Positions 34,825 through 62,748 of a stretch of 64,000 nt of DNA are shown piece by piece. Within the stretch, counting starts at the first letter, position 1. Every line of letters begins with the position of its first letter. Made by a program: the position numbers and the translations under genes. Origin of the DNA: an uncultured delta proteobacterium (GTDB lineage Bacteria; Myxococcota_A; Polyangia; Palsa-1104). Location of the stretch: positions 320,001 through 384,000 of the forward strand of contig CAWAWS010000007.1 in assembly GCA_963785725.1 (NCBI GenBank). The letters are read 5' to 3'. A model generated the notes under the pieces. It saw only the letters and a list, made by a program, of their open reading frames with translations. It was not told where the DNA came from and searched no databases.

Positions 34825-34834
34825 GGAACGAACG

Positions 34835-36243: not shown

Positions 36244-37356
36244 ATGATCGGCTTCCTCGAAGAGCGGCACATCGCGTTGCGCTATCGCGCGCAGGCTTGG
36301 GTCGACGCGGCCGGGCTGGAGAATGACCACGATCCGGCCGAGCTCGTCGCGCGGCTGGCGCGTCACGAGCTCTTGCGCGCCTGCGTGCCGGCGGCGTACG
36401 GCGGCCTGCGCGAGCGCGTCGAATTGCGCGACTTGTGCGTGCTGCGCGCGGTCATCGGCTATCGATCGTCGCTCGCCGACACGATGTTCGCCATGCAGGG
36501 CCTCGGCAGCTATCCGGTGACGCTGGCTGGCACCGAAGCGCAGAAGCAGGCGCTCTTGCCGTCGGTGGCGAATGGTCAAACCATTTGCGCGTTCGCGATC
36601 ACCGAGCCGGAAGCGGGCAGCGACGTGTCGAGCGTCAGCACGCGCGCGGTCCGCGACGGCGATGGCTACGTCATCGACGGCGTCAAATGCTTCATCAGCA
36701 ACGCCGGGCTCGCGCACTCGTACGTGCTGTTCGCGCGCACGTCGGACGATCGGCATCGCGGCCTCACGGCGTTCCTCGTCGACGGCAAAGCCAATGGTTT
36801 AACCATTACGCCGACCGAGCTCATCGCGCCGCATCCCATCGGCACGGTGACGTTGCGCGGCGTGCGCGTGCCGGCGTCGGCGCGCGTGGGCGAGGAGGGC
36901 CAAGGCTTTCAGCTGGCGATGGCGACGCTCGATTTCTTCCGCACGTCGGTGGGCGCGGCGGCGTTGGGCATGGCGGCGCGCGCGCTCGACGAAGCCAAGG
37001 CGCGCGTCAAGGCGCGGCGGCAGTTCGGCAAGGCCCTGAGCGAGTTTCAGGGCACGCAGATCGCGCTCGCCGACATGGCCGTCGACGTCGCGGCGTCGCG
37101 GCTGTTGGTGTTCTCGGCGGCGCAGCGCATCGACGGCGCCGATCAGCCGGGCAGCGTCGACGCGGCGATGGCCAAGCTGTACGCGACGGAGGCGGCGCAG
37201 CGCGTCGTCGATCGCGCCGTGCAGCTATTCGGCGGGCAAGGCGTGGTGGCCGGCTGTATCGTCGAGCGGCTCTATCGGGAAGTGCGCGCGCTCAGAATTT
37301 ACGAGGGCACGAGCGAGATCCAAAAGCTCGTCATCGCCAAGGCGCTGCTGCGCTGA
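36244..37356 (+). CDS. Acyl-CoA dehydrogenase
   Basis: [44 protein letters not shown]. Confidence 0.95.
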
Positions 37357-37475
37357 AACGCGCGGTCCACGGGCATTTACGCGACAGTCGACACGCGGCG
37401 GGCGCGCAGGGCGGGCGCGCGCATCGGGCGACTGCGCTCGGCAGCGTGCTCGTCGGGGCGTCCGACGCGACATTC

Positions 37476-37682
37476 GACGGCATGCATCATCGCTGGTTCG
37501 GCGCGGAATGCGACGGCGTGCACTATCGCGCGGTCGGCGCAGAATGTGACGGCATGCGCCATCGCGTGTTCGGCGCGGAATGCGACGGCATGCGCGATGG
37601 CGCGTTCGGCGCGGAATGCGACGGCATGCGCGATGGCGCGTTCGGCGCGGAATGCGACGGCATGCGCGATGGCGCGTTCGAC
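37476..37682. repeat. 36-bp tandem repeat, about 5.5 copies
   Basis: Unit GGCGCGGAATGCGACGGCATGCGCGATGGCGCGTTC; the last three copies are identical. Confidence 0.92.
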
Positions 37683-37820
37683 GAGCAAGCGACGGCCTAT
37701 TTGCTGCTCGGCTCGGTCGCGCATCCGACGGGGGCGTTCGATAGCGCTGTCGCGCTGCGCGGATCGCGATAAATTACAGCTCGCGGCGCTGACGCGTTCG
37801 CAAAGGGAATGGTTCAACCA

Positions 37821-38186
37821 ATGCCGCATTACGAGAAGCACGTCTTCATCTGCACCAACGAGCGCGACAAAGACAACCCGAAGGGCGACTGCGCGCGCCG
37901 CGGCTCCGACGACATTCGCGACGCGTTCAAGAAGGGCATTCACGAGCGCGGCTTGAAGGGGCGCATGCGTGCCAACGCGGCCGGCTGCCTCGACCAGTGC
38001 GCGTTCGGGCCCACCGTCGTCGTCTATCCCGAGCAGGTTTGGTACTCGGTGCCGACGCGCGCGGACGCCGAGGAGATCATCGAGAAGCACTTGGTCGGCG
38101 GTGTTCCCGTCGAGCGGCTGCTGTTGCGCACGAACAAGGACAAAGAGCAGGACAAAGCCGGCAAGGAAGGCAAAGAGCCCAAATGA
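37821..38186 (+). CDS. Thioredoxin-like [2Fe-2S] ferredoxin
   Basis: HVFICTNER...DCARRG...AGCLDQCAFGPTVVVYPEQVWY. Confidence 0.93.
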   Translation: MPHYEKHVFICTNERDKDNPKGDCARRGSDDIRDAFKKGIHERGLKGRMRANAAGCLDQCAFGPTVVVYPEQVWYSVPTRADAEEIIEKHLVGGVPVERLLLRTNKDKEQDKAGKEGKEPK

Positions 38187-38437
38187 AGAAGCCGCAAATT
38201 CTCGTCGGTGTGGCCGGGCTGGCGCTCGGTCTGTTGCTCGGCGGCGCGTTCATCGGTCGCGCGCATGCGCAGCAGCCGGGCGCACGCTTTCAGTACATGT
38301 GCCAGACGAAGCTGAACAAAATCTGGACCCCCGAAGCGCAAGCCAGGCTCAACGAGCTGGGAAGCCAGGGCTGGCAGCTCTTGCCCACGCGCAGCCCAAT
38401 GAACGAGGACGTCTATTGCTACGAGCGTCGCTTCTGA
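38183..38437 (+). CDS. Small exported protein, DUF4177-like
   Basis: Signal peptide ending AHA; ARLNELGSQGWQLL motif; ATGA overlap with the ferredoxin stop. Confidence 0.7.
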   Translation: MKKPQILVGVAGLALGLLLGGAFIGRAHAQQPGARFQYMCQTKLNKIWTPEAQARLNELGSQGWQLLPTRSPMNEDVYCYERRF

Positions 38438-38485
38438 ATGGTTTAACCAATCTTCGGATTGGTTAAACCACTCGTCGCTGCCGTC

Positions 38486-39961
<1,476 letters not shown>

Positions 39962-39978
39962 AGGGAATGGTTAAACCA

Positions 39979-41520
39979 ATGACAACGCCAAGTGAGACGA
40001 CGTTTCAGCCGCAATTCCCCGAGCAGTTCAACATGGCGCGCTACTTCCTCGACGCGCGGATCGAAGAGGGGCGCGGCGATCACGTCGCCATCATCGACGA
40101 CAGCGGGCAGTACACCTATCGCCAGGTGCAAGCGATGGCGAATCAGGTGGGCAACGCGCTGACGGCGATGGGCGTGGGCGTCGAAGATCGCGTGCTCATC
40201 GGGCTCTTCGACAGCGTCGAGTTCGCGGCGGCGTTCTTCGGCATCTTGAAGATCGGCGCCGTCGTGACGATGGTGAATCCCGAGCTGCCCGACGGCGATT
40301 ATCAGCACTACCTCGACTACACGCGGGCGCGCGCGCTCATCGGCGACATTGGTTTGACCAATCGCATTGCGCCCATGATCGAGAGCTCGAAGCTGTTGCG
40401 CGGCGTCTTGAGCGCCGGCGGAAATTGGGCGGCGAAGGTCGGCGGCGCGTCGACGGAGCTCGTGAACTTCGACAGCTCCAAGGACGATCCGTCGGTGTGG
40501 CTGTTCACGTCGGGATCGACGGGGAAACCGAAGGGCGCCGTGCATCTGCAGCATGATTTTGCGTACAACACCGAGTGCTACGCCAAGCCGGTGCTGAAGA
40601 TGCGCGCCGACGACGTGACGCTCGGCGTGCCCAAGCTGTTCTTCGGCTACGCGACGGGCAGCGACTTGATGTTCCCGTTTGCCGTCGGTGCGACGGCCGT
40701 GTTGTTTCGCGAGCGGGCGACGCCGGAGAAGGTGCTCGAGCTGTGCGCCAAGCACCAGGTCACGGTGCTGACGAGCGTGCCGACGATGATCAACAAGATG
40801 GTGCAGGCGGTGGGCGGCAAGCGTTCGCTGGCGCCGTTGCGCGCGGTGATTTCGGCGGGTGAGGCGCTGCCGGCCGAGCTCTATCACCGCTGGATGGAGA
40901 CGTTCGGCGTCGAGATCCTCGACGGTATCGGGTCCGCCGAGCTGTTCCATATTTACATCACGAATCGACCGGGCGAGGCCAAGCCGGGGTCGCTCGGGCG
41001 CATCGTGCCCGGCTACGAGGCGAAGATCGTCGGCGCCGACGGCAACGTCGTCCCCGACGGTGAAATCGGCACGCTGTGGGTCAAGGGCGACTCGGCGGCG
41101 ATCTGCTATTGGCAGGCGCACGAGAAGTCCAAAGAGGTGTTGCGCGGCGATTGGGTCGTGTCGGGAGACCTGTTTCGGCGCGACGGTGAGGGCTACTATT
41201 ATTATGCCGGCCGCGCCGACGACATGCTGAAAGTGGGCGGCATTTGGGTGTCGCCGCTGGAGGTGGAGTCGTGTTTGCTGCGGCATCCGAACGTGCTGGA
41301 GGCGGCGGTCGTCGGCTACGAGGATGACGACGGGCTGGTGAAGTCGTTGGCGTTCGTGGTTCTGCGGGATGCGACGGCGTCGGACGAGCTGGCGCGCGGG
41401 ATTATCGAGCACGCCAAGAGTCAGCTCGTGCATTACAAGGCGCCGCGGAAGGTGGAGTTCGTGGCGGCGCTGCCGCGGAGTGACCGGGGGAAGATCCTGC
41501 GGCGCGAGCTGCGGACGTGA
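39979..41520 (+). CDS. Benzoate-CoA ligase family protein (probable anthranilate-CoA ligase)
   Basis: LFTSGSTGKPKG, PKLFFGY, LDGIGSAE, GRADDMLKVGGIWVSPLEVE. Confidence 0.9.
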   Translation: MTTPSETTFQPQFPEQFNMARYFLDARIEEGRGDHVAIIDDSGQYTYRQVQAMANQVGNALTAMGVGVEDRVLIGLFDSVEFAAAFFGILKIGAVVTMVNPELPDGDYQHYLDYTRARALIGDIGLTNRIAPMIESSKLLRGVLSAGGNWAAKVGGASTELVNFDSSKDDPSVWLFTSGSTGKPKGAVHLQHDFAYNTECYAKPVLKMRADDVTLGVPKLFFGYATGSDLMFPFAVGATAVLFRERATPEKVLELCAKHQVTVLTSVPTMINKMVQAVGGKRSLAPLRAVISAGEALPAELYHRWMETFGVEILDGIGSAELFHIYITNRPGEAKPGSLGRIVPGYEAKIVGADGNVVPDGEIGTLWVKGDSAAICYWQAHEKSKEVLRGDWVVSGDLFRRDGEGYYYYAGRADDMLKVGGIWVSPLEVESCLLRHPNVLEAAVVGYEDDDGLVKSLAFVVLRDATASDELARGIIEHAKSQLVHYKAPRKVEFVAALPRSDRGKILRRELRT

Positions 41521-42017
41521 CGGCGGCGGGCGCGGGGTTCGCGGCGGGCGCGGGGTTCGCGCGAGGCGCTCGGGGCGCGACGTTGGCGGCGGATGAGGCG
41601 ACGTGCGCGATGTTCGCAACAGGCGAGACGACGTGCGCGATATTCGCGGCGGCTGGCGCGATGTTCGCGACATGCGAGGCTCGGGGCGCGACGTTGGCGG
41701 CGGATGAGGCGACGTGCGCGATGTTGGCGGCAGGCGAAATGACGCGCGCGATATCCGCGGCGGCTACGGCCATGGGCATGTTGTTCGCGGCTGGCGAAAC
41801 AACGAGCGCGACGTTCGCGATGTTCGCGTCCCGGCAACCGACGGTCGCGATGGTCGCGGCAGGGGAGTTCGCGCGAGGCGGCGCGGCCGTCATGTTGGGC
41901 GCGGAGCAGGCGCTCGAAGGCGCGTCGGCGACGCGCGCCGACGGTGCGTTCGCGAGGCGCGCGACCGCGCAATGCGCGTCGGCGACGCGCGCGACCACCG
42001 CTCGAGCCGACGCGTGA
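41517..42017 (+). repeat. Degenerate ~30-bp tandem repeat region forming an open low-complexity ORF
   Basis: Recurrent GCGACGTGCGCGATGTTCGC units; the ORF overlaps both neighbours by GTGA. Confidence 0.7.
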
Positions 42018-42772
42018 GGCGCCTCGGCGAGCTGACCTGGCCCGAAGCCGAAGCCCTGCGCGCGCGCGAGCCGATCATGCTCGTGCCGATCGGCTCCACC
42101 GAGGCGCACGGCCCGCACTTGCCGCTGGCCACCGACACTATCTTGTCCGACGAGCTGGCGCTGCGCGCCGCCGCTGCGCTCGAAGCCGACGGATACGCCG
42201 CCGTCATCGCGCCCGCGCTCGCCTACGCCATCACCGACTATGCCGGCGATTTCCCGGGCACGATCTCGCTGACCGCTGCGACCGCCGTCGCAGTTTTATC
42301 GGACATCTGCAGCTCGCTCATCGGTCGCGGCTGGCGTCGCGTCTGCCTCGTCAACAGCCACCTCGAGCCGGCGCACGTGACGTCGCTGAAGGACGCTTGC
42401 GCGCAGGCGTTCGCGCGCACCGGCGTCAACGTCGCGTTCGCCGATCAGCTCGATCGGCGCTGGGCGCGCACGCTGACCGACGAGTTCAAGCGCGGCGCCT
42501 GCCACGCGGGAAGCTACGAGACGTCGCTGGTGCTGGCGGCGCGACCGGAGCTCGTACGCGACGAGCTGCGCCGCGGATTAGTGGTTAAACCAATCGACCT
42601 GGCCAAGGCGATGCGCGAAGGCAAGCGGACGTTCATCGAGGCCGGCGCCGACCAGGCGTACTTCGGCGACCCGGCGGGCGCTACGGTTGAAGAGGGCAAC
42701 GACATCTACGCGCGGCTGGTGGTCATGGTCGTCGAGACCGTGCGCGCCGCGTGGCCAATCGAGAATGGTTAA
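42014..42772 (+). CDS. Creatininase-family amidohydrolase
   Basis: LGELTWPE, PIGSTEAHGPHLPLATD, VNSHLEPAH, HAGSYETS. Confidence 0.92.
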   Translation: MRRLGELTWPEAEALRAREPIMLVPIGSTEAHGPHLPLATDTILSDELALRAAAALEADGYAAVIAPALAYAITDYAGDFPGTISLTAATAVAVLSDICSSLIGRGWRRVCLVNSHLEPAHVTSLKDACAQAFARTGVNVAFADQLDRRWARTLTDEFKRGACHAGSYETSLVLAARPELVRDELRRGLVVKPIDLAKAMREGKRTFIEAGADQAYFGDPAGATVEEGNDIYARLVVMVVETVRAAWPIENG

Positions 42773-43412
42773 ACCAATTTCGAAATTGGTTTAACCATTC
42801 AGTGGGCGTTCGCGCGACCGACTTCGGAAGCGATCCACGTCGAGCGACGAAATCGATGCGCGAGCCTGCTTCCTCCACGTTCAATCGACGATGGGTGAAG
42901 TCGAGGTCGACGCGCCCGAGATGGGTCGGATAGTTCGTCTCGGCGTATCGACCTGTCTCGGCGTATCGATCGGACTCAACACGCCGATTCGGTATCGGCT
43001 GGGAACGCCAGACGGTGGGAACGCCGACGGAATGCCGAGACGGGTCGGCACGTCATGAGAGACATGCGGCGAGGCGGGGCTTTAAGTTTCAGCCGGGGCC
43101 GGCGCGACGGACCGATTCGGTGTGGCGAGACAGCCGAATTCGGTGCGGGCAGATTCGACGCAACCAACTCATCGGCGCTACCAACTCATCGGCACGTTGA
43201 CACCGATCGGGCAGCCGTAATGGAGTCCGTGCGCCGAGACTGATTCGTGCGGCGAAGTCGAGTCTCGCGCCGCTCCGCCGCGACTCTGCCCGCTCCGATG
43301 GAGCCGAGAGCCAGAGCGCGCCTGACGATGAGAATGCCGTCGCCGCGCTGAGCATAATGGTTAAACCAGTCCTGGAATTGGTTTAACCATTCGGCGGGCG
43401 TTCCCGCCAGCG

Positions 43413-43796: not shown

Positions 43797-43809
43797 GCGT
43801 GCGAGCTAG

Positions 43810-43825
43810 AGCAGAAGCCGTGCCA
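43810..43825 (-). promoter_or_regulatory. Sigma54 promoter of the YXWGXW lipoprotein gene
   Basis: Minus strand TGGCACGGCTTCTGCT (GG-N10-GC), ending 13 bp before ATG 43796. Confidence 0.75.
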
Positions 43826-43978
43826 CGAGTCGCGCGAGCGCTGCGTCAATCAACCCGCACGCTTGCATGGGACTGCGCCGACCAGATCGGGAAGTACACA
43901 CCCACCTACTGGGGTAAGTAGCCACCATCATTGGGAAACCGGAGTAGCTAAGCTTACGTTAGATGCAAGCGGGTGGGG

Positions 43979-44017
43979 TGAATGAGCGCTCATTCAAAAT
44001 GAGTGAGGGCTCATTCA
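43979..44017. promoter_or_regulatory. Tandem 18-bp palindromic operator/enhancer pair
   Basis: Perfect TGAATGAGCGCTCATTCA (43979-43996) and variant TGAGTGAGGGCTCATTCA (44000-44017), 21 bp offset. Confidence 0.75.
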
Positions 44018-44209
44018 GTGGGCGTTGGCGTGCTTACACAAGATGCAACAGGCGGTCGCGGCAAGGTCCGGCGCGCGGGTGCATCGTCGGCGATGTGCTC
44101 GAGTCGATCGCTTATTCACGCGCGAGCCGTGAGCCGTGCGCAGCGCCCAAATCGAAGCGAGCGCCTGAACCGAAGATTGGTTGAACCACGCGTAGCCAGC
44201 AGCGTTGCT

Positions 44210-44800
44210 TCCGAGTCGTGCGCGCGAACCGAGGAAGCGAGAGATCGTGGCGCGCGTTACGCGGGTCGCGGTTACGTTGTGCGCGTACACCGAGGCGCGA
44301 GAAATCGCGGCGCGTAGCATGCGCTGGGGCTCGAAGTGGAGTTGTGCGAATAGGTCGAGGAGACCAGAATCGTCGCGGGCGTTGCGCGGGCCGCGGCTGG
44401 AAGTGGAGTTGTGCGCGTGGACCTAGAGCGGGAGAAATCACCGCCGCGTGCGCGCGCGACTGATCGAGAGTGAATCGTGCGCGAGAGGCTGAAGAAATCG
44501 CGGCGCGTTGTGCGCGCGCGACGGATCGGGATGGAGTCGTGCGCGAGAGGCTAAGAGAGCGCGGCGCGTTACGTGCGCGACGGATCGGGACGGAGTCGTG
44601 CGCGAGAGGCCGAAGAAATCGCGGCGCGTTACGCGCGCGATCGAGATTGAGTCGTGCGCGAGAGGCTAAGGAATCGAGCCGCGCTCTGCGAGCGACGGAT
44701 CGGGATTGAGTCGTGCGCGAGAGCCTGAAGAAATCGCGCTGCGTCGCGCGTGCGGCGGACGCGCTTGAGTCGTGCGCGCGAGCCGAGGGCTGAAGAATCG
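44210..44800. repeat. Degenerate ~58-60-bp tandem repeat
   Basis: Unit approximately GAGTCGTGCGCGAGAGGCTGAAGAAATCGCGGCGCGTTACGCGCGCGACGGATCGGGA; clear copies near 44474, 44534, 44594, 44650, 44709, 44768. Confidence 0.88.
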
Positions 44801-45162
44801 CCGCCACACTGCCCGTGCGACGGTCGATGGCCGAGTCGTGGAGCGCCGAGCGTTCGGGAGTCGCCGCCGCATGGCCCGTGCGGCTGGTCGAGACTGCGTC
44901 GTGTGCGTGAACCAGCGCTCGGCGAATCGCGCCGCCCTCGGATTCGCCCGCCGCGTCGAGCTGCGGCGGAGCCCGACGAATCGGTCTGAATTGCCTCTCA
45001 GAGGCCGCGTCGAATCGGCCCGTGTCCACGTTCGGCGCGGCACGCCGCGCCTCCCGCCAGGTCGCGTGGTCGAGCTACGCGAAGTACCGCGCGACCGCGT
45101 CGAATCGGCGCGTCGAGCTGCGTTCGTTCCGTCCGACGCGGCATTCCGCGCGCGTGGTCGAG

Positions 45163-46728
45163 CTACGCGAAGTACCGCGCCTCGTTGTCGAGCAGCCAGC
45201 GCCCGCATCGCGTCGCCAGCGCCATGATCGTAATCTGCGGATTGACGCCGATCGGCCCCGGAAACACGCTGGCGTCGGCGACAAACAGCCCAGGCACATC
45301 CCAGCTCTCGCCGTGCGGATCGACCACCGACGACCGCCGATCGACGCCCATACGACACGTGCCCATCGCGTGCACCGTCAAACACTCGACCTCGTTCTTG
45401 GGGATCGAATGGTTGAACAACTGGCGAATCTCGTCGGGGGAATCGATCGACGTCAGGAAATCGAACGGCAACAGCACTCGCTTGGCGCCCGACGCGAACA
45501 AGATCTCCGACGTCAACGCCACGCCGCGGATGAGGTTGGCGAAATCGCGATCGTTGACGTCGTAGCGCATGCGCGCCTCGCCGAAGAGGTCGAGATCGAC
45601 GGTGCCGGTGCCGGTGTCCTCGACGAGGCAGCCGGCGGCCAGCATCTTGTCGTAGTCCTGCATGATCTCCCACGAGCGCGCGCCGAAGTAGGGCAGCGAC
45701 ATCGCGATGAGCCCCGGCGGCACCATCGACGTCGTGATCATGATGCCTTCGTCGATGAACTCGCGGATCTGGTTGCCCTGGATGGTCCCCTTCCACGCGT
45801 GAATCGGCTTGTCGTACACGCCGATCACTTTCGAGTTCGGATGACACAAGAAGTTGCGCCCGACCTGCCGCGAAGAATTGGTTAAACCATTGCGCAGCAA
45901 CAACGCCGGCGTCTGCACGGCCCCGCACGCCAGCACGACCACCTTCGCGCGCACCGTCAATTTGGGCCCGCGTTTGCCGCTCTCGGGATGACGAAAGCGA
46001 CCGACGATTCCCGTCGCGCGCGAGCCATCGGTGACGACGCGCTCGACTTTGCAGCCGCTGAACAGCCGCCCGCCCGCCGCGAGCAGACGCGGAACATACG
46101 TGACGAGCACCGACTGCTTGGCGTCGGTCGGGCAGCCGAACGCGCAGTTATTGGAGCCGCAGCAGTGCTTCTGGCTGCGCATCGCCGGCACGTAGTGATA
46201 GCCGAGCTTGTCGGCGCCGCGCTCCATGAGCCGCGCGTCTTCACCGACGGACTCGGGATCTTGCGGGCGCACGCTGACGCGCTCTTCGACCTTCGTGAAA
46301 TAGGGATCGAGCGCCTCGGGCGTCATGTCGCTGAGCCCGTGCTCCCACTGCCAGCGCTTGAGCACCTTTTCCGGCGTTCGCCAGCTCATGGCGCCGTTGA
46401 TCACCGTCGAGCCGCCGACGCAGCGCCCTTCGGAGAAGATGATGTTCGGCTTGCCCATGATCGGCGCCGAGCCGGCGTTGCGATAGAGCTTCTTGATCAT
46501 CGTCGGCGCGTTCAGGCCGAAGTCTTTGGACGTGTAGTGTCCGCCCTCTTCGACGACGACGACGGAGCGGCCGCCCTCGGCGAGCTCGGCGGCGATGGCG
46601 CCGCCACCGGCGCCGCTGCCGACGACGACGACGTCGCAGTCGACGACAAGGTCGCGTCCGGAATTGGTTAAACCATTGCCCCCACCGGCGACGCGGCCGG
46701 CCATGACGTCGTCAAATGTCGCCAGCAT
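45163..46728 (-). CDS. GMC family oxidoreductase
   Basis: DVVVVGSGAGG, GRCVGGSTVING, VHAMGTCRMG, FPGPIGVNPQITIMALA. Confidence 0.95.
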   Translation of the reverse strand: MLATFDDVMAGRVAGGGNGLTNSGRDLVVDCDVVVVGSGAGGGAIAAELAEGGRSVVVVEEGGHYTSKDFGLNAPTMIKKLYRNAGSAPIMGKPNIIFSEGRCVGGSTVINGAMSWRTPEKVLKRWQWEHGLSDMTPEALDPYFTKVEERVSVRPQDPESVGEDARLMERGADKLGYHYVPAMRSQKHCCGSNNCAFGCPTDAKQSVLVTYVPRLLAAGGRLFSGCKVERVVTDGSRATGIVGRFRHPESGKRGPKLTVRAKVVVLACGAVQTPALLLRNGLTNSSRQVGRNFLCHPNSKVIGVYDKPIHAWKGTIQGNQIREFIDEGIMITTSMVPPGLIAMSLPYFGARSWEIMQDYDKMLAAGCLVEDTGTGTVDLDLFGEARMRYDVNDRDFANLIRGVALTSEILFASGAKRVLLPFDFLTSIDSPDEIRQLFNHSIPKNEVECLTVHAMGTCRMGVDRRSSVVDPHGESWDVPGLFVADASVFPGPIGVNPQITIMALATRCGRWLLDNEARYFA

Positions 46729-47776
46729 GACGGCGCAACCTTTCTGCGCTCACCAGCGCCACGTGCTCGTCGACGGTGTAGCCGAGCAGGGCGCCGACGC
46801 GCGGGTCGGAGTAGTAGGCGAGCAGGCACAGGCCTTTGACCGCCTTGATGAGATCGCGACGCAGGCCCCAGCGCGCGTGCACCCAGCTGTCGACGTAGCG
46901 GCCGCGGCGCGCCAGCGACATCGACGAGAACGGCACCAGCGACGGGCCGAGCAGGAAGGCGCCCAGCTCCAGCATCATGAGCCCGATGGGAAAGAGCAGC
47001 TTCAAGAGCCGCGGCATATGCGGCACATAGTCGTCGATGAAGCGCACGTAGTCGTCGAGCGGCAGCGCCGGCGCGCTGGGCCCGATTGGTTGAACCACTT
47101 CCGCGAGGGCGCGCACGACGCGGCGTGACCACGGCCCGAGCGTGCGCGGCGCCGGCCCGCCGCCGTCGGTGTTGGCGCCGGCCGAGCCGTTCGCCGCGCG
47201 GCCCGGTGTCGACGCGCTGCCTTGGCGGTTCGCGTTCGCGGCGGCAACAGGCGCGCCGTTTGCCGCGCGGGTTGGCGTCGGCGCGCCACCGTTCGCGTTC
47301 GCGCTTGCGTTCGCGCTCGCCGTGGCCGACGCACTGTTCGCCGCTCGGTCGGCCGCAGCTGCGCTGCTTCCGTCTGCGACGTCGCGGCGCGGTGTCGGCG
47401 AGCCTCCACCGATGTCGGGCGCGGTCGCATTCGCGGGCGAGCTGTTGCGGTGGGCCGTCGTCGCCGACTGCGTCCCCGCTTCCGTCAGCGACGACGACGA
47501 CGCTGCTGTCCGCGACGACGCCGCCGCTTCCGTCAGCGACGACGCCGCTGCTGTCAGTGACGACGACGCCGCTGCTGTCAGCGACGACGACGCCGCTTCC
47601 GTCAGCGACGACGACGCCGCTCGCCCGACCATCGACGCGCCGGCCGCCTGCCCGACGTCCATCGCCGTCGACTTCGCCGTCGTCGCGTCGTCGCGCGTCG
47701 TCGCCGCGCCCAGCGCCGAATTGTCGAGCCCACGCGCCGCGGTCGTCGGCGGCGTCGGCTCCGGCGGTCGACTCAA
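46712..47776 (-). CDS. GMC-associated small subunit (gluconate 2-DH subunit 3-like) with a long low-complexity N-terminal extension
   Basis: C-terminal ~140 aa ends LIKAVKGLCLLAYYSDPRVGALLGY; the N-terminus is A/S/T-rich repeats; TTG start overlaps the GntR stop. True start uncertain. Confidence 0.7.
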   Translation of the reverse strand: MSRPPEPTPPTTAARGLDNSALGAATTRDDATTAKSTAMDVGQAAGASMVGRAASSSLTEAASSSLTAAASSSLTAAASSLTEAAASSRTAASSSSLTEAGTQSATTAHRNSSPANATAPDIGGGSPTPRRDVADGSSAAAADRAANSASATASANASANANGGAPTPTRAANGAPVAAANANRQGSASTPGRAANGSAGANTDGGGPAPRTLGPWSRRVVRALAEVVQPIGPSAPALPLDDYVRFIDDYVPHMPRLLKLLFPIGLMMLELGAFLLGPSLVPFSSMSLARRGRYVDSWVHARWGLRRDLIKAVKGLCLLAYYSDPRVGALLGYTVDEHVALVSAERLRRHAGDI

Positions 47777-48570
47777 CGCTTCCTCTTGGTGCCGCGCGTC
47801 CGCCCGCGCCCGCTCGCCGCCGCAGTCTCGTCATCGAGCCGCTCCGGCGCCAGCTGCCCCAAGACGAGCCCGCTGCGCGATTCGAGCACGTCGGCCATCT
47901 TGCGCCGCGCCTCCTTTTCGTCGCCGGTGCTCATGCGCGTCACGACGTCGTCGAGCGCGTCGAGGTAAGCGCCGTCGATCTTCCACAGCTGCGGATAGCG
48001 CTCGCCGAGATAGGCAAAAATGCGCGCGAACGTATTGAAGACCCAGACCAAGACCGTCGTCTTCGACGCCAGCACGAGGTGGCGATAGAAGTTGATGTCG
48101 GCCAGCACCGCTTCGATCGTGCCGCTCTCGACGACGCGCAGCTCGTCGAGCGCACGGCGCAGCGCGCGCAGCTCGGTCTCGGCGTGCCCACCCGTCGCTG
48201 AATGGACGGCCTGATCGATGAGCTGATCGCGCAGCCGAAACAGCGTGTAGACGGCGTCGAAGCGCTCGTCGATCGGCGTCTCCTCGGCGAGGAAATGCGG
48301 CAGCAAGTTGATCTCGCCCACCGCGCGCCAATCGAGCACCAGTGTGCCGTCGCCTTGCCGCGCGCGCACCAGCTTCTCCGACTCCAGCGTGCGCAGCGCC
48401 TCGCGCAGCGTGTTGCGGTTGGTGCCGAGCTTCAGCGCCAGCTCGCGCTCGGGCGGCAGCCGCGCGCCCGGCTGATAACGGCCGAGCAAGATCTCGCGCC
48501 GCAGCTTCTCGACGACCGTCTCACCACGCGCCCGCCGCGCCGACGGGGGAAATTGGATTGGTTTAACCAT
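47773..48570 (-). CDS. GntR-family transcriptional regulator, FadR subfamily
   Basis: wHTH VVEKLRREILLGRYQPGARLPPERELALKLGTNRNTLREALRTLESEKLVRARQGDGTLV; all-helical C-domain (ADINFYRHLVLASK). Confidence 0.95.
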   Translation of the reverse strand: MVKPIQFPPSARRARGETVVEKLRREILLGRYQPGARLPPERELALKLGTNRNTLREALRTLESEKLVRARQGDGTLVLDWRAVGEINLLPHFLAEETPIDERFDAVYTLFRLRDQLIDQAVHSATGGHAETELRALRRALDELRVVESGTIEAVLADINFYRHLVLASKTTVLVWVFNTFARIFAYLGERYPQLWKIDGAYLDALDDVVTRMSTGDEKEARRKMADVLESRSGLVLGQLAPERLDDETAAASGRGRTRGTKRKR

Positions 48571-48634
48571 TTGTAGAATTGGTTAAACCAATCGCGGGCA
48601 GTCGTCAATCGCAGTTTCGCTCTATCCTGCTTCC

Positions 48635-49885: not shown

Positions 49886-50042
49886 CTAGCCTGGAGATTG
49901 GTTAAACCAATCGGCGCGCCATTCCTGCTGTGGGGTGCGACACGTCAGCGGCACTCTGGCGAGATCCAGCAAGCCGAGATCTGCGCCGTACGGACGGTTC
50001 GGCGCCCGGCCCAGCTGAGCTCCAGCGCAATCCAGCCGAATT

Positions 50043-50726: not shown

Positions 50727-50944
50727 TGGTTAAACCAATCGCAGCAGAGGGTTGAATCGATCGACACCACGGATCTCTTGACCGGCGCAAGGGTTAAGCC
50801 GATCCGCGCAGCGGATCAAGCAGTCGGCGCAATGGTTAAACCAATCGGCGCAGCGGATCAAGCCGGAGCGGATGGTTAGCCAATCGGCGCAATGGTCGAC
50901 CGAGCGGCACACCGTTGGAGCGATCCGCCCGTGGTCGACCACCG

Positions 50945-51070
50945 GGCGCAATGGTTAAACCAGTTGGCGCAATGGTTAAACCAGTCGGCGCAATGGTTAA
51001 ACCAGTTGGCGCAATGGTCAAACCAGTGGGCGCAATGGTCGAACCAGTGGGCGCAATGGTTTAACCAATC
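50945..51070. repeat. Six head-to-tail 21-bp units, each carrying one palindromic site
   Basis: GGCGCAATGGTTAAACCAGTT x6 with small variations; further degenerate units at 50785-50940. Confidence 0.95.
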
Positions 51071-51848: not shown

Positions 51849-53275
51849 CGTACAGGGCCGGTGGAGCGTCGGCAAGATCGGCGGATGGTCCGCGCGCGGG
51901 CAGGCACATTGTCCGACGCGCGAGCACATGGGCGCGCGTCGGCGATGGTCTGTGCACGGCGGAGGAAGCGCGCAGCGAAGTCGCGCGTTGGCTGCGCTGC
52001 GCGGTTTCGTCGGTAGCGAGGTGGTCGAACGGCTTCGTCGGTGGCAAGGCCTGGGAGGTTTCGTCTGGCGAGGCGGCCGACAGTTTTGTCTATCGCGAAG
52101 GACGCGGAACGGCTTCGTTAGTGACTAAAGCCGTCGGCGGCTCACCGGCGGCGATGGCTGCAGCCGGCCTCGTCGGTGTCGATGGCCACGGCTGTAAGGA
52201 TTGACAAGGCGATGCTGCAGCCGGCTTCGTCGGTGTCGAGGCGCGGCTACAGGATTGACGGTAGCTCGCTTCGCCTCTCCCACTCTACGGCAGGCCGTCG
52301 ACGACTGCCGCCGATCCGTCGCTGTCTTGAACGCCCACGTTCGTAGTGCGCTCCCCAATCGCGTTCGCGTGTCCGCTATGCGTGTCGACAAAAAGCCATG
52401 GCGCTGGATATTCCGGCGGCGTCATCGACCAGCCAGCGTGTCAAAGAGCCACCAGCATGCGAACATTCGGCCACGTTTATCGACGGGGCTGGCGTTTCGA
52501 AGCGCGCTACTGCGCGAACATTCGGGCAGCCGTTGTAGACGAGCGCGAGTCGAGAAACGCAGCGGTACGCGCTTAGCTCGAGTAGCCTTCGTCGACAAGC
52601 GAGTCTGTCGAAGAATGCACCCATTCTGCTCGCGGTTTTGACGAGTGAGCGTGTCGAAAGCGCGCTGACTCGCGAGCATTCGGGCGGGCGTTGTCGACGA
52701 GCGGGCGTTCGAAAGCTCGGTGGCGCGCACACTTGCGAGCGGCGTTCGTCGATGTCCGCGCCGGTCGAGAAACTGCGCGGTCGCCATCGTCTGCCGCAAT
52801 CGTCATCGAACCAGGTGAATCCCAATAGCGCTGGCAGTCTGCCGCGCTTTTCCAGCGGTCGAGCGCCTCCCGATACTGGAAGGCGCGCGGCGATTGTAAC
52901 CGCGGCCGATCGATCGTCGATGATGACGACGATTGTCCGACATCGCCCACCCGATTTCGCGCGTCACCAATCGTGAATCCCGCCGCGCGCTGCGACCCTT
53001 GCGCGCGGACGAACGTCACAGTGGTTTGACCTTTCTCGCTTGACTTCATATTGGCCGGCCGTAGAGTTGAAGGTGACTCATCGAGCGCCGCCGCGATTTC
53101 ACCAGTAAGGGCCGCGCGCGCGGATTTACGAGCGCGAAATAAAGGGTACACCCCTCCACCTCTAGTCGCAGCCCTCGCCTCGGCGACGGCAATAACGACG
53201 AACGGCAATGTCGCGAAGGCATATTTGGCCTCGCAGACGAAATCGGAAAACGGATTCAATAGGAGATTGATCGGA

Positions 53276-54157
53276 ATGTCGAAACCGAATTACCGCGCCA
53301 CCCTCATCTTCGATACCGACCGCAAAGTCTTCCTCGCCCGCGCTCCCGAGCTGGAGCATTGCAGCGCCGAAGGCGCCAACCGCGCCGAAGCCCTCACCAA
53401 GCTGGAAGAAGAGATCGACGCGCAGCTGGCCAACATGCTGTCGCACGGCTCGACGCCGCCGCGCGCGGTCGACGAAGAGGTTTTCACGGGCGAGATCGCG
53501 GCCAAGGTTTCGAAGCAGCTCCATCGTGAGCTGGCGTTTCAGGCGCGTTCGGAAGGCATCGAGCTCGATCAGATCGTGGGCGAGCTGTTGGCGGCGGCGA
53601 TGGAGTCGCGCAAGCAGACGCGCGGCACCCGCGGCGGCAATCGCGTCGCGCAAGAGCACACGCCGAACGACAACGTCGGCAATCGCTACGAGGGTGGCGG
53701 CGGCGGTGGACCGCGCCCGCAGCGCGGATTCGGCGGACGCGGCGCGAACAACCACTTGCTCGACGATCGCGCCAACTTCATCGAGTACGTGCGCGGGCTC
53801 GAGCAGCAGGGCACTGGTATGACCAATCGTCACGGCGGCGGCGGGCACGGCCAGCCGCGCGGCGACGGCGACCGCGGTGGACGCGGTGGACGCGGCGGAC
53901 GCGGTGGACGTGGCGGCGCCGGCGGACCGCGCGGCGGCAACCCGAGCCATGGCGGACAGAATCGCGGCATGCAGGGCGGCGGTCCGCGTCCGCAGGGCAA
54001 CTTTGGCGGCGGGCACGGCGGCGGCGGCGCGGGCAACGGCGCCGGCGGCAATGGTCACGCGGCGGCGGGCAACGGCGCGCATCACGCGGAAGCGAGCGCG
54101 GCGCCGCAGCACCACGACGCGCCGGCGCACGACCCCGAGTCGGGCGGCAACGTCTAG
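53276..54157 (+). CDS. HicB-like protein (HicB N-domain + ribbon-helix-helix) with a long Gly/RGG-rich tail
   Basis: AGGAGA RBS; FLARAPELEHCSAEGANRAEALTKLEEEI; FTGEIAAKVSKQLHRELAFQARSEGIELDQIV; GGRGGRGGRGGRGG. Confidence 0.82.
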   Translation: MSKPNYRATLIFDTDRKVFLARAPELEHCSAEGANRAEALTKLEEEIDAQLANMLSHGSTPPRAVDEEVFTGEIAAKVSKQLHRELAFQARSEGIELDQIVGELLAAAMESRKQTRGTRGGNRVAQEHTPNDNVGNRYEGGGGGGPRPQRGFGGRGANNHLLDDRANFIEYVRGLEQQGTGMTNRHGGGGHGQPRGDGDRGGRGGRGGRGGRGGAGGPRGGNPSHGGQNRGMQGGGPRPQGNFGGGHGGGGAGNGAGGNGHAAAGNGAHHAEASAAPQHHDAPAHDPESGGNV

Positions 54158-57060: not shown

Positions 57061-57345
57061 GATTGGTCGAACCAATTCTCGGCTTAGGGTTGGTTAAACC
57101 AATTCTCGGGCTGGGATCGGCCCAGCCGCGCTCCGACCAACAGGATCGGTTGGGATTGGTTAAACCAATTCTTGAGCTGGGAACGACCCGACCGCGCTCG
57201 GCTACGATTGGTTAAACCAATTCGCATTTGTCTGGAACCGGCGAGTCCGCGTAAGGATGAGCGCGGATTGGTTAAGCCAATTCGCATTCGTCTAGGACCT
57301 GCCAACCTGCCTGCCGGCAAGCGCGGATTGGTTAAACCAATTCGC
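57048..57345. repeat. Cluster of six palindrome-bearing repeat units between convergent genes
   Basis: GATTGGTTAAACCAATTC-like cores at 57062, 57089, 57155, 57207, 57267, 57327; the last three have a 60-bp period. Confidence 0.9.
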
Positions 57346-57381
57346 GACCGGTAAGTTTGGCTTGGCCGGCGGTTGTCGGCG

Positions 57382-58311: not shown

Positions 58312-58315
58312 GCGC

Positions 58316-58882
58316 TCAGTCGGTGAAGTCGGCGGCCGCCGAGCGGCGTCCACAGAGCGCCAGCAGCACGAGCGGGAAGGGCGAGTAGAGCAGGATCGTC
58401 AATAGCAGGGTCCCCATCGACTGCGTGCTCTGCGCCAGCTGCAGCGTCGCCGGATCCGACGCCATCACATCCTTCATCACGGCTGCGGTGCGCGGAATGA
58501 TGATGCTCACCATCACGAGCGCTTCCACGAACGTGAACAGCAGCGCCAGCGCGCCCCAGCCGAGCGCGCCCGAGCGGCTCCAGCGCCGTCGCTGATACAG
58601 CCCGCAACCGATGACGATGAGCGCGATCGACAAGGCCAGCTTGCCACCGGTCAGCGCGTCGCTGTAGGGCGCCACCTGATGCATTGCCTCGGCCGTTCGC
58701 GCCATGACCAGCGCCGGATCGGGTTGGCCCGGCCGCTGCGGCAGATTCTTCATCAGGGTGCCCATATGCCCGAAGAGCGTCGGGCTCAGGGCACTCACGG
58801 CGAGCTTAAAGACGTTCGAAAGCGCCACCAAGCTACCGAAGACGATCGATAGAATGCCGAGCGTGACAGGCGTCCTGCGCAT
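58316..58882 (-). CDS. Hypothetical 4-TM membrane protein
   Basis: Four hydrophobic segments; lies 4 bp upstream of rluA on the same strand. Confidence 0.75.
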   Translation of the reverse strand: MRRTPVTLGILSIVFGSLVALSNVFKLAVSALSPTLFGHMGTLMKNLPQRPGQPDPALVMARTAEAMHQVAPYSDALTGGKLALSIALIVIGCGLYQRRRWSRSGALGWGALALLFTFVEALVMVSIIIPRTAAVMKDVMASDPATLQLAQSTQSMGTLLLTILLYSPFPLVLLALCGRRSAAADFTD

Positions 58883-59327
58883 CCGCGGAGTGTACTACTA
58901 AATTGGTTTAACCATTGCTCGCACCGTCGGACATGCGCGCAGCGCAGTTGGCTCGACGCTTCGTGATCGCCCGCACGTTGCAGCAGCGCTGGCCATTGAC
59001 GTCTTGATGCGACGTCGCAGCGGAATCGGCGCGACGGCAATGGTTAAGCCAATCCTGCGACGTGGGCAGAGGGGCGCGTCCGCAAAGCCAATCGTCAACC
59101 ATGCTGCGCTTCGTCTATGTCGACCGACCGCCATCCTCGCCTTGCGCACTGCGAGATGGCGCTTGGCGTACTGCCGCGCGTGGTTAGCGGAGCGTGACGC
59201 AGCCGCCTCGAGCTCGCGATTCTATTGATCTGCATTGTTGGCCAAGCTCGTCGAGCACTGCCACTACCGCCGATGTCCACTCGAGCACGAGGCGAACGTC
59301 TCTGCTTCGGGGCGAATGGTTAAACCA

Positions 59328-61454
59328 TTACGGTCGGCCGTCGGACGGTGGCGGCTTCGGCAGCGCCGGCGACGTCGCCGGCACGTCGACGCCTTCGGCC
59401 GCGCGCGCTGCGTCGTCGACGATCGGATCCCTCGGCGTCGAAGGTTCCTTGGCCGCGTCGACGACGTCCTTACTGCCGTGCGTCGCTTCGTTCACCGCCG
59501 CCTCGCCTTTCGCGTCGCTCTTCGCGCCGTCTTTGCGCCCGTCCTTGCTCTCGGTGCGCCCATCGTCCGCGCCCTCGTCGTCGACGTCATCTTTGCCGAC
59601 GTCCTTCGTGTCGGGCGCGGCGCCGCCAGGCGTGAGCGCGCAGGCCGCCTTCGCCTTCTCCGCCGCCGTCATGGCGATATAGACGGTCAGCTTTTGCCCG
59701 ACGACCAAGTCCGTGTGCGCCGCGCCGAAGCGGTTGATACGCTCGAGATCGGGCACCGTCAGCTTGAAGCGCGCTCCAATCTTTTTCATGTCGTCGCCCT
59801 TCTTGACGACGTAAGTCAGCCGCTTTCGCCCGCGCCGCGCCTCGACGAGATCGAAGAATTCGGGCGAGCCCGTCGTCACGACGCGAACACGCGCCGGATC
59901 CACCAACGCCGCCTTTGACTGATCGAAATCGGTCGGCACCCACAGCTGCAGCACCATGTTGCTGACCAGCTTCGCGTCGAGATCGATGTTGTTCCAGCGC
60001 GCCAAATCGATTGGTTTGACCTTGAAGAAGCCGGCGATGTCGGCCGGCAGGTCCATCGGCAGCGTGCGATAAAAGACACGGGTTTTGCCGGCGACGACCG
60101 CGTCTTTGTCGGGCACGGCGACGATGAGCGTGTCGCACGGCGGCGGCGGCAGCGGCTTCTTGCCCTCGGGCGCGAGCAGCGTGAGCCCCGGGCGAATCTC
60201 GGCGCTGTCGTCGACGCCGTTGAGCACGCGCAGCTCGTGCGCCGACACTCCGTGCGCCGCCGCGACGTCATCGAGCCGCTCGCCGAAGCGCACGACGAAT
60301 GGTTTAACCAATTCTCGATTGTGTTCGAACGCGGCCGCGAACTTGGCGCCGCTGCCGCGCGGCAGCCGAATCTCCCACGGCTCGGGCGGCGTGCGCTTGC
60401 GGCGCAGCTCGGGATTGAACGACGCGACTTCGGCTGCCGTCACGCCGGCCGCATGCGCGATCGCGGCCACGCTCATCGACGACGGCACGCTCACGCGATC
60501 GAACGCATAGGGCGCATCGGGCTGCACGCCGTCGAAGCCGAAGCGCGCGCGGTTGGCGTCGACGAGCGCCGCCGCCATCACCTTCGGCACGTACAGCGTC
60601 GTCTCCCACGGCAAGCCGTCCTCGTGCTCGCACAGCTCCCAGTAGTCGTTCGTGTTGTATTTCTGCATCGCGCGAATGACCGCGCCATAACCGGCGTTGA
60701 AAGCCGCCAACGTCAGCGGCCAGGCGCCGAAGCGCTGCTTCAAATCGCCGATGTAGTGGACGAACGCCGCGGTCGCCTTCTCTGGATTACGCCGCTCGTC
60801 GATCCAATAATCCTCGCGTAACCCGTAGATCTTCCCGCCTTCGGGCATGAACTGCCACAGCCCGACGGCGCCCGCGTGCGACAGATCGAGCGGATCGTAG
60901 CCGCTCTCGATCATCGAAATATTGACGAGCGCCAGTGGCAGATGCGCGCGGCGCAGCGCGTCCTCGAAGAACGCTTTCCAGCGCCCTTCTTTGCGCAGCC
61001 ACGTGTTCATGATCGCGTGTCCGCGATGGTCCGACTTGTAGAACTCGAGATAGCGCACGACATGCGGATCGAAACGGATCGGCAAATCAGGCAGCTTCAG
61101 CTGATCGAGCCACGGGATCGCGGGTGCCACTTCGATTGGTTTAACCAATTCGCGCACCGGTGAACGCAGCGCAGCCGGCAGCGTGTCGGGACCGATGCCG
61201 TCGGGCAGCGGCGACACTTGGCGACCGAGCGATCCGTTCTCGTCGACGACGTTGGGGACGATGAGCGGGCTCGATTGCGCCGCGGGAAACGATTGCTCGT
61301 CGAACTCGCGCAGTTGACGCAGCTCGTCGGTCTCGTGCGAGACGTCGACGGGCGCGCCGCGGACCGCGCGACGGCCGATGGGATTCTCCGGGAGCGGCGG
61401 ATTCGCCCAGGCCGGCGCCGCCGCCAACAAGAGCACGAGGGCCCAGCGTGGCAT
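59328..61454 (-). CDS. MltD-like lytic transglycosylase (SLT + LysM domains)
   Basis: MIESGY, AVGLWQFMP, AAFNAGYG, ETTLYVPK; LysM-like YVVKKGDDMKKIG. Confidence 0.93.
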   Translation of the reverse strand: MPRWALVLLLAAAPAWANPPLPENPIGRRAVRGAPVDVSHETDELRQLREFDEQSFPAAQSSPLIVPNVVDENGSLGRQVSPLPDGIGPDTLPAALRSPVRELVKPIEVAPAIPWLDQLKLPDLPIRFDPHVVRYLEFYKSDHRGHAIMNTWLRKEGRWKAFFEDALRRAHLPLALVNISMIESGYDPLDLSHAGAVGLWQFMPEGGKIYGLREDYWIDERRNPEKATAAFVHYIGDLKQRFGAWPLTLAAFNAGYGAVIRAMQKYNTNDYWELCEHEDGLPWETTLYVPKVMAAALVDANRARFGFDGVQPDAPYAFDRVSVPSSMSVAAIAHAAGVTAAEVASFNPELRRKRTPPEPWEIRLPRGSGAKFAAAFEHNRELVKPFVVRFGERLDDVAAAHGVSAHELRVLNGVDDSAEIRPGLTLLAPEGKKPLPPPPCDTLIVAVPDKDAVVAGKTRVFYRTLPMDLPADIAGFFKVKPIDLARWNNIDLDAKLVSNMVLQLWVPTDFDQSKAALVDPARVRVVTTGSPEFFDLVEARRGRKRLTYVVKKGDDMKKIGARFKLTVPDLERINRFGAAHTDLVVGQKLTVYIAMTAAEKAKAACALTPGGAAPDTKDVGKDDVDDEGADDGRTESKDGRKDGAKSDAKGEAAVNEATHGSKDVVDAAKEPSTPRDPIVDDAARAAEGVDVPATSPALPKPPPSDGRP

Positions 61455-61777
61455 GCCTCAGGCTATCGCGCACCGTCGGCGCCCACAACTTTTCGCGGCG
61501 AATGAGGCCTATTTCGCGCGCGATTTCACGGCGAGCGCGTGGTCGTAGTCGTCGCGATGTGCGGCCAACGCCCGCGCCCGCCCGCTATGCCCTCGCTTGT
61601 TGCGAATGGTTAAACCATTCGGCGAAAGGCTGGGCAGGCCTTGCCCGCATGCGGGAGCGTGGTGGCGGGAAGGGTCGACAGAGGTCCGAATTCGACCGAC
61701 CGCCTCACTCGGATTGGTCTGACCGTTATGCAGCGCGGGACCGTTCCTTGGCGATCGTGCGCGAACGAACGGCCAAC

Positions 61778-61887
61778 GAGGGAACGAGGGAACAAGGCAA
61801 CGCAGGAACGAAAGAACGAAGGAATGCGAGAACGAAGGAATGAGAGAGCGAAGGAGCGAAGGAGCGAAGGCACGAAGGCACGAACGG
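61778..61887. repeat. Purine-rich degenerate 8-bp microsatellite
   Basis: Run of GAAGGAAC/GAAGGAGC/GAAGGCAC-like units. Confidence 0.8.
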
Positions 61888-62343
61888 GCGCGGCCGCCCA
61901 GTCACTGTGGTCGATGCTTGTTCAACCTTTGGTAGGGACGCGAAGCGAAGTGGGGATGACGACGGAATGTGAATAGATCGGGTCGACGCTCGCTCCATAT
62001 CAGTCGACGCAGAGGCTGCCGCGCAACGTCGACGCGCGCGTATCTCGTCTCGCTCCAAATCAGTCGAAAGCAGAAGCCGCTGCACAACGTCGACGCGGGC
62101 GTCATCTAGGATTTCACCGACGCGGTCAGCGGCCGCGCGGCCACAATTCCTGACGAATGCGAAATGTGCTCGGCCGTAAACACCGATTGGTGAACCGCCG
62201 GGAACGATGTTCGTCGTGCGACGAGTCTTGAATGCCGAGAGCGTGCTGACGGCAGCTCAGCGTTCGTCGCCGCATTCCTTCGCGACGTTTCGCCAATGGC
62301 AGCTCCGCTAATGGTTAAACCATTGGGAGCAATGGTTTAACCA

Positions 62344-62748
62344 TTAGCGGGCGGCTGGCTGAACGGCGTCCAGCATGCGGGCGAGGACGTGGCCGACGGC
62401 GAGCGGCCATATCGTCACTACCGTGACCCAGGCGGCCAGCGTCGCGCCGAGCGCGAGGCGGGGACGGCGCAACCGCAAGCCGCTCGCGAACGCCCAATCG
62501 ATCATGTAGGTCACGAGCGCCGTCAGCGATGCGGCCAGGAATGCCACAGCCGGCGGATATCCGACGCCGAGGAAGACGCACCAGCCGATCAACGCCGCAG
62601 CCACGTTCGTACCGTCGCGCGCATAACCCAGCCACGACGGTGGGGCGCCCGTGTCGACGGCGCGCAGACGCGAGAGCGCCTCGGCGAAGAGCGCCAGCGT
62701 CGCGGCCAGCGCCACGTCGGCCACGACGGACGCTGGCATGACGGGCAT
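62344..62748 (-). CDS. Hypothetical membrane protein
   Basis: About four hydrophobic helices (VVADVALAATLALFAEAL...WLGYARDGTN...); divergent from tatA. Confidence 0.7.
   Translation of the reverse strand: MPVMPASVVADVALAATLALFAEALSRLRAVDTGAPPSWLGYARDGTNVAAALIGWCVFLGVGYPPAVAFLAASLTALVTYMIDWAFASGLRLRRPRLALGATLAAWVTVVTIWPLAVGHVLARMLDAVQPAAR

Follow-up and report, generated by a model that had tools for sequence, protein, structure and literature searches.

The window examined here, a 64-kb stretch of DNA (positions 320,001-384,000 of contig C7) from the genome of an uncultured delta proteobacterium, the soil myxobacterium G000, carries a dense array of one short palindrome and, within it, a gene for a GntR-type repressor, gntR. 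The genome comprises 8.9 Mb in 47 contigs with a guanine-cytosine (GC) content of 68%; gene calls are codon-model calls made in this analysis and are approximate. The palindromic core, TGGT-N3-ACCA (TGGTNNNACCA), was found 48 times in the window, always between 36,573 and 62,343, compared with a mean of 0.09 and a maximum of one copy in the shuffled window. An earlier note on this DNA had claimed some 47 palindromes, a figure which fits the core; the fully flanked form, AWTGGT-NNN-ACCAWT, occurs 32 times and the W-flanked form 36 times. A consensus drawn from 165 sites reads AWTGGTYNRACCAWT, and flanks beyond these 15 bases are not conserved. Such dense patches are called clouds below, and their sites are counted at no more than two mismatches to the 15-mer consensus unless called perfect. 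On this basis 54 sites, 32 of them perfect, occupy window positions 36571..62345 (coordinates of sites are given without a strand). The note's statement that positions 1-36,500 are empty holds for the core, but two weaker sites lie there, at 32,872 and 35,767. As it had suspected, the array runs on past the window, ending at C7:390,632 (about window position 70,630, 6.6 kb outside). It had also placed gntR at the centre, an impression that arose because the window ends inside the cloud: the gene start is some 12-13 kb in from the left edge, with 22 kb of cloud to its right.

The gntR gene (47773..48570, minus strand) encodes a protein of 265 residues with a GntR winged helix, an FCD domain and a basic C-terminal tail. 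Both domains score over the Pfam cut-off (E 1.5e-21 for GntR and 8e-06 for FCD), and the best Foldseek matches of the structural model (predicted local distance difference test 90) are E. coli FadR and its chimera, at template modelling scores of 0.62-0.77. An all-helical FCD-type domain after a GntR winged helix makes the protein a member of the FadR subfamily. G000 has one close copy of the gene, located in the cloud of the window only, and its nearest database homologues come from Polyangia or Myxococcales. At the gene start (48557..48592), two palindromes 21 bp apart form a predicted autoregulatory operator pair, one copy of which holds the start codon. This copy spells the N-terminus MVKPI, and these residues are conserved across most of the orthologous group. 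The pair is retained in G001, G002, G003, G004 and G010 (21 bp) and in G012 (20 bp), as well as in all six metagenome gntR loci with both sites readable; a seventh locus shows the pair too, and two of the nine lack the 5' end.

The motif sits at its own gene and matches the consensus operator of the FadR subfamily, TKGT-N3-ACMA, as given in the survey by Suvorova et al. (PMC4494728). Winged helix and FCD domain, this palindrome, autoregulation and paired sites are all features of repressors such as PdhR, LldR and E. coli FadR. Among distant homologues (at least 80 loci at 29-38% identity), the best 25 were checked for site position, and 14 of these have the core no more than 300 bp upstream of their own gene; the 80 loci listed contain at most five cores in up to 20 kb, that is, no clouds. 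This comparison makes it very probable that the cloud motif is the operator bound by the GntR protein of 47773-48570.

Across G000 the motif forms four sharp-edged clouds of 12-35 kb each, with about 195 sites in all. Cloud A, to which the window array belongs, spans C7:355.8-390.6 kb (about 35 kb, 78 sites) and contains gntR. Cloud B (C7:421-436 kb, 33 sites), cloud C (C33:40-64 kb, 51 sites) and cloud D (C39:304-316 kb, 33 sites) do not, and the single domain around gntR envisaged in the note is thereby lost. The clouds make up 1% of the genome at about two sites per kb (one per 450 bp). They hold 122 perfect sites in 85 kb, against one in the remaining 8.81 Mb, where ten one-mismatch sites were also found. 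A generic genome-wide repeat, which the note had named as the result that would undo its reading, is thus excluded, and we likewise reject a repeat of the repetitive extragenic palindromic, HIP1 or uptake type. DNA uptake sequences and HIP1 are short motifs driven genome-wide into tolerant codons of conserved genes, unlike sites confined to so small a fraction of the genome and paired at a fixed spacing.

The genes under the clouds are functionally unrelated. Cloud A covers catabolic enzymes, a kinase, a phosphatase, RluA, MltD, TatA and a LolE-like permease; cloud B a cluster resembling fatty-acid synthesis; cloud C a peptidase, a glycosyltransferase and others; and cloud D a permease with radical S-adenosylmethionine and ATP-grasp enzymes. 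No gene or element common to all four was found in Pfam scans of 24 and 40 proteins, the first 71 rows of a self-BLAST, or the transfer RNAs. A search for other locally clustered palindromes in G000 gave a sole comparable match, a repeat within one repetitive gene region on C3. This region (C3:471568-475570) consists of a 306-bp unit in at least 11 copies and apparently encodes a cysteine-rich repeat protein. The cluster under cloud B (C7:422209-434965: LolA, acyl carrier protein, FabG, ketosynthases, acyltransferase, deacetylase and sulfatase) may represent a specialised lipid pathway.

We surveyed 401 genomes of the class for sites and gene; no claim made here rests on G331 and G363, two unpublished genomes among them with a single site each. 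Six or more perfect sites were present in eight genomes (123, 47, 35, 28, 27, 22, 7 and 6), all of one family, while the other 393 have five at most. An orthologue of gntR was found in seven of the eight; the eighth, G007, is 51% complete and has sites with the gene undetected. G008 and G013 carry the cloud-A gene block in order without gntR, and have no sites in about 24 kb each; in G009 the genes that normally flank gntR are present without it, and 39 kb there are free of sites. The homologue in G006 is diverged and partial, lies elsewhere and is adjoined by one weak site. The note had counted orthologous loci without a surrounding array as contrary evidence to its reading; orthologous gntR loci in relatives do carry the cloud. 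G011 is site-free but has an orthologue of 50% identity whose 5' end runs off the contig; within the class, four more distant homologues occur in genomes with zero or one site. Because blocks without gntR are site-free, yet G011 and the distant homologues have the gene without sites, gntR looks necessary, but not sufficient, for clouds in this comparison, which draws on few and related genomes and is not a statistical test. Within the window, a conserved protein of 293 residues (53276-54157) has no Pfam match; its nearest Atlas cluster is an unnamed Myxococcota family, followed by HicB antitoxins with scores under 0.8. It is present in cloud-free genomes too and is therefore not a cloud partner.

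Clouds follow chromosome position, not gene function, and suggest that a gene switch has come to mark or organise regions of the chromosome. Under the clouds of G000, 48 sites fall at convergent junctions (12 of 13 occupied), 16 at divergent ones (8 of 14) and 58 at tandem ones (16 of 31), and 61 of the 195 sites lie deep within genes; many overlap start or stop codons or convergent ends. Four relatives are about even in this respect (11/22 convergent, 9/19 divergent and 27/71 tandem junctions with sites). Sites within coding sequences and at convergent 3' ends had both been reported in the note, and its view that ordinary promoter regulation does not explain the layout is borne out by these counts. 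Cloud A is bounded by the same genes in G001-G004 and G012 while individual sites turn over, and its left edge abuts groES/groEL in all relatives. In G001-G004, cloud C covers genes whose best G000 matches sit on other contigs and are site-free. In G012 cloud B takes in a further 20 kb of genes, and in G003 it is nearly empty. The genes of cloud D have no sites in five relatives; this cloud exists only in G000 and, on that comparison, is new to its lineage. The LolE-like gene of cloud A has an 80%-identical paralogue on C26, a contig without a core site. In G012, two extra site pairs (L050, C462:19012-23130) lie over genes that are site-free in G000, and may be a young cloud.

An ordinary FadR-type regulon consists of few, operon-linked sites conserved in position, and the clouds differ from it in each respect. 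The subfamily survey counts 2,396 sites for 634 regulators, about four each and ahead of operons (PMC4494728), unlike the roughly 195 sites per gene found here, a third of them intragenic, in four dense domains over unrelated genes. We therefore regard as very improbable that the clouds are merely a large regulon, or are read by a binder other than this GntR. Other FadR-family proteins do read similar motifs, and the mismatches of gene and sites in G011 and G007 would fit; but sites favour convergent junctions and gene interiors, their positions turn over, they vanish where gntR is absent from the syntenic block, and their pair spacing tracks that of the gntR promoter.

This spacing is strict. 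Of 190 gaps between neighbouring sites in G000, 38 are exactly 21 bp and one is 22 bp, with none of 15-20 or 23-26 bp; some 11 of the 38 fall in duplicated arrays, and the remainder have unrelated spacers. In relatives, 24 of 25 short gaps measure 21 bp; G012 differs, with 18 of 21 at 20 bp, the distance also found at the start of its gntR. The fixed distance points to cooperative binding of two dimers under selection, since a lineage-specific distance with a free spacer is what such binding, and not copying, would predict. Copying of whole pairs from the gntR promoter was rejected because the spacers are unrelated.

Sites within genes are in-frame replacements in all three frames, often with two to five residues changed and sometimes none, and some were gained by synonymous changes alone. 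At four-fold degenerate G/C positions inside sites, 8 of 11 have become A/T, against 4.6% outside clouds. With G000 branching first in the genus tree, some gains are unique to G000, and G004 shows a loss back to GC-rich codons; identical codons have been converted to sites in G000 and G012, which belong to two genera. In well-aligned pairs, 55 of 77 site comparisons (which are not independent) are shared, and 42 of these 55 lie within one base; among background 15-mers the figure is 44%. Shared sites persist in the face of a GC-ward trend, which shows purifying selection acting on them.

A different origin would be self-propagation with little benefit to the cell, in which the bound protein biases mutation, repair or recombination (by stalling forks, by slippage, through short templated patches or by favouring the retention of alleles that carry sites) so that sites multiply close to existing ones, and selection removes harmful sites only. 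Compared with 413 other 20-kb windows, tandem repeats occupy 2-10% of the clouds (genome median 0.7%) and coding density falls to 0.64-0.73 (median 0.85), as such a process could leave behind. Orthologous 15-mers at 40 intragenic sites are also mostly all-or-none: among 147 comparisons, 40 have at most one mismatch, 10 have two to four and 97 have five or more, a bimodal distribution where the random mean is 10.1. Some gains look like blocks (10 differences between flanks at 90% in one, a 7-base indel in another), site numbers range 20-fold among relatives, and the duplicated arrays among the 21-bp gaps fit as well. The idea nevertheless seems unlikely to us. Most pairs combine unrelated spacers with a fixed, lineage-specific distance, and neighbouring sites share variants above chance in only one of the four clouds (B), with flanks not shared. 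The 22 cases in which one relative lacks the site differ by 1-11 bases (median 4), so that intermediates exist beside the few block-like changes. The synonymous gains, the codons converted in two genera and the conservation against the GC-ward trend speak against it too.

The clouds also leave a mark on base composition. Four-fold-site GC is 0.89-0.92 in cloud genes and 0.95 outside, roughly flat to 1 kb from a site, and G/C-to-A/T changes number 162 of 2,069 in cloud genes against 164 of 3,571 outside. The genes of cloud D have fallen from about 0.965 in relatives to 0.89 in G000. Against G002, whose own cloud genes drop too, the contrast is not significant. This could result from lower expression, from less recombination or from hindered repair. 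Amino-acid change in cloud genes showed no rise over genes outside. Pseudogene decay was rejected: frames are intact, and broken frames are commoner outside clouds than in them (13/51 versus 1/29 in comparisons with G003 and 10/55 versus 3/25 in those with G004), some being artefacts of open reading frame calls. Outside clouds, many frameshifts separate G000 from its relatives and are likely long-read errors; G002 has far more, an excess that would explain its 53% completeness at 7.9 Mb.

Weak codon selection at low expression would give the same GC deficit, and is one reason to consider domain-wide damping. Bound dimer pairs at gene starts, ends and interiors would here act as roadblocks, in the manner of phage stoperators, that lower or insulate transcription across the domain until a ligand such as acyl-coenzyme A (CoA) releases the protein, amounting to a sequence-specific, ligand-switchable bacterial heterochromatin. 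Many sites do lie at start or stop codons or convergent ends, the fold is like that of the acyl-CoA-sensing FadR, clouds A-C hold acyl-CoA and fatty-acid genes, and cloud A adjoins groES/groEL at its left edge in all relatives. We nonetheless find damping doubtful, since the genes covered are unrelated and probably needed (TatA, RluA, MltD, the LolE-like permease, LolA and an iron-trafficking protein), the same genes are site-free in relatives, and amino-acid change is not raised. The sites are moreover palindromic and therefore have no orientation relative to transcription. Damping is compatible with the domain-coating reading set out below, and the two are not exclusive.

Placement on the chromosome bears on several further proposals. 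In G000, dnaA and three parS-like sites lie on C19:114-124 kb, another contig than the clouds, which for this reason are not centromeric; in G002, cloud A lies about 1 Mb from dnaA. The centromere-like role floated in the note thus fails, and identity with parS/ParB was rejected, as the motif differs and the clouds are not at oriC or parS. The parS-like sites occupy C19:123687-123792, 10 kb from dnaA, with one lone site at C16:16102. Ordering the contigs of G002 by synteny with G000 (43 and 20 sampled stretches, one join by elimination) gave a 7.9-Mb circle with A at +0.97-1.00, C at +1.06 and B at about -1.24 Mb from dnaA, or 25-31% of arm length given this inferred contig order. Confinement to the terminus, as in matS, was rejected, the G002 clouds lying away from it; for G000, a search for dif-like sites and strand skew gave no usable signal for the terminus. 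The similar distances of A, B and C from oriC, on both arms in G002, are suggestive only. Across relatives, one of which was ordered relative to oriC, cloud A is kept in all and C within the genus, B is variable and D unique. The arrangement of G000 departs from that of G002, G003 and G007 by an exchange that breaks no more than 1 kb from the right edge of A and 30 kb from B; a roughly symmetric inversion would have this effect. The right edge of cloud D is a breakpoint too.

Similar distances from dnaA in G002 could also serve a titration sink or reservoir, in which the clouds soak up repressor and sharpen the threshold for autoregulation and a few true targets; replicating at about the time gntR does, they would keep source and sink balanced. 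Sites are numerous and near-perfect, and gntR is predicted from its operator pair to be autoregulated. This seems to us a poor bet all the same, less probable than self-propagation. With free intergenic space available in 8.8 Mb, a sink has no need of costly codon changes, or of sharp-edged domains with a site every 450 bp. Hardly any true targets are visible outside the clouds, and the sink would differ 20-fold in size between relatives.

Comparable arrangements are known from several systems. ParB/parS and Noc with its binding sites use clustered palindromes to load protein over tens of kb, unlike the clouds, where motif and fold are others and coverage is encoded site by site in the sequence. 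Stoperators of cluster A mycobacteriophages serve an autoregulated repressor through dozens of sites, at junctions and in genes over tens of kb, which are asymmetric and oriented with transcription. The sites here are palindromic, the host genes that carry them are syntenic and vertically inherited, and the repressor gene is missing from three of the clouds; a stoperator array in a prophage was rejected on the palindromic form and on synteny across the family, including site-free genomes. SlmA and RefZ, chromosome organisers with repressor folds, are thought to descend from transcription factors. They are the closest likeness, as repressor folds on sites defined by position: SlmA of E. coli, a TetR-family protein, has 50 matches to its binding site over the non-Ter chromosome, and RefZ of Bacillus subtilis, also TetR, has five binding motifs whose positions are kept across the genus (PMC3116907, PMC6657595). 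As with SlmA, RefZ and Noc, sites here track chromosome position rather than what the genes do, but the protein belongs to the GntR family, the sites number about two per kb, and the 12-35-kb patches are born and lost within a genus. MatP/matS is likewise a domain-specific palindrome, found by sequence alone and unrelated to the functions of the genes covered; it has 23 sites across the whole Ter region and a dedicated protein (PMC3116907), whereas the present domains are four, small, far denser and away from the terminus in G002. Full-text literature, searched also for the motif itself, gave no account of such clouds, subscription papers being mostly beyond reach.

Our preferred explanation, to which we assign a probability of roughly 0.4 on comparative sequence evidence, is that a FadR-like GntR repressor was co-opted in one Polyangia family as a position-marking, domain-coating and probably bridging chromosome protein. 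Like its rivals, this explanation presupposes binding of the motif by the GntR protein. The repressor would retain its ancestral job of binding two operators at its own start. Dimers would sit on the 15-bp palindrome, with a second dimer bound alongside at a distance of two helical turns. So much protein concentrated in a domain of 12-35 kb would make further near-matches useful, and selection would then turn these into full sites wherever genes tolerate change. Coated domains may be compacted, held together, or both, with A, B and C at similar oriC distances on the two arms of G002.

Several observations weigh against this explanation. Clouds vary greatly between close relatives, from 6 to 123 perfect sites, and this counts because known position markers hold their place across a genus. 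Between three and five family members are without both gene and sites, so the system is dispensable, and the orthologue of G011 is site-free. A search for a partner protein or unusual domain found neither, and the GntR protein looks like an ordinary FadR. Site clusters do not form a clearly regular lattice (P 0.05, 0.055, 0.18 and 1.0), and a lattice was rejected. Finally, the genes of cloud D lie at +0.39 Mb from dnaA in G002 and break the mirror pattern, and a mirror match within 0.26 Mb on a 3.95-Mb arm has roughly a 1-in-8 chance of arising in the one genome ordered.

A bolder form of the co-option reading, which we hold only as a tentative possibility, is that a ligand-sensing repressor has become a sequence-programmed chromatin protein whose domains grow and seed others through positive feedback, local protein load and the gain of sites reinforcing each other. 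The outcome would be switchable compartments of 12-35 kb that pair loci on the two arms and alter local mutation and rearrangement. We know of no described bacterial system that builds domains by feedback between operators and site gain, and to our knowledge the transition from transcription factor to chromosome organiser has not yet been caught in progress. Here one family shows the stages together: a promoter pair only; 6 perfect sites; 22-47; 123 with a new cloud; and gene and sites lost. The origin of position-based binding domains, and the selection strength needed to rewrite proteins, can thus be tested directly; so can the existence in bacteria of sequence-specific domain silencing that ligands switch, or of arm pairing. 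Both protein and DNA are open to in vitro and laboratory-strain work without culturing the organism. Polymorphism was sought in four DNA runs, which yielded short contigs of mixed relatives and nothing usable.

Individual sites within the window illustrate the patterns above. Two 21-bp pairs with unrelated spacers flank a convergent junction (42764..43391), six sites lie between the convergent kinase and RluA genes (57062..57341), and a tandem array of six sites at a 21-bp period (50950..51069) resembles a slippage-type expansion. Within genes, a site in the GMC oxidoreductase gene (45877..45891) falls on codons NGLTN, at which relatives show 0, 0, 0, 1 and 5 mismatches; one in a flavin oxidoreductase gene (39033..39047) is unique to G000, with three to four residues differing from all six relatives and no indel; and one in the MltD-like gene (60298..60312) is retained in all six relatives compared. 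The weak left-edge site (32872..32886) precedes the tryptophan dioxygenase gene, and the clouds of relatives also start at this junction beside groES/groEL.

Beyond that site, positions 32940-41520 hold on one strand a run of genes, syntenic across the family, for tryptophan dioxygenase, kynureninase, RidA, enoyl-CoA hydratase, acyl-CoA dehydrogenase, flavin oxidoreductase and CoA ligase, which we take to resemble a tryptophan-to-aminobenzoyl-CoA pathway of the abm type. Degenerate tandem repeats were noted in long stretches without genes at 43800-45160, 51930-53270 and 63378-63866, where relatives have short spacers. Dispersed multi-copy repeats occur at window 36083-36165 and at C7:390950-391170, the second at the right edge of cloud A and its rearrangement breakpoint. 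Near the contig end, C7:929800-931500 is very AT-rich for a genome of 68% GC and may be foreign DNA or a binning fault.

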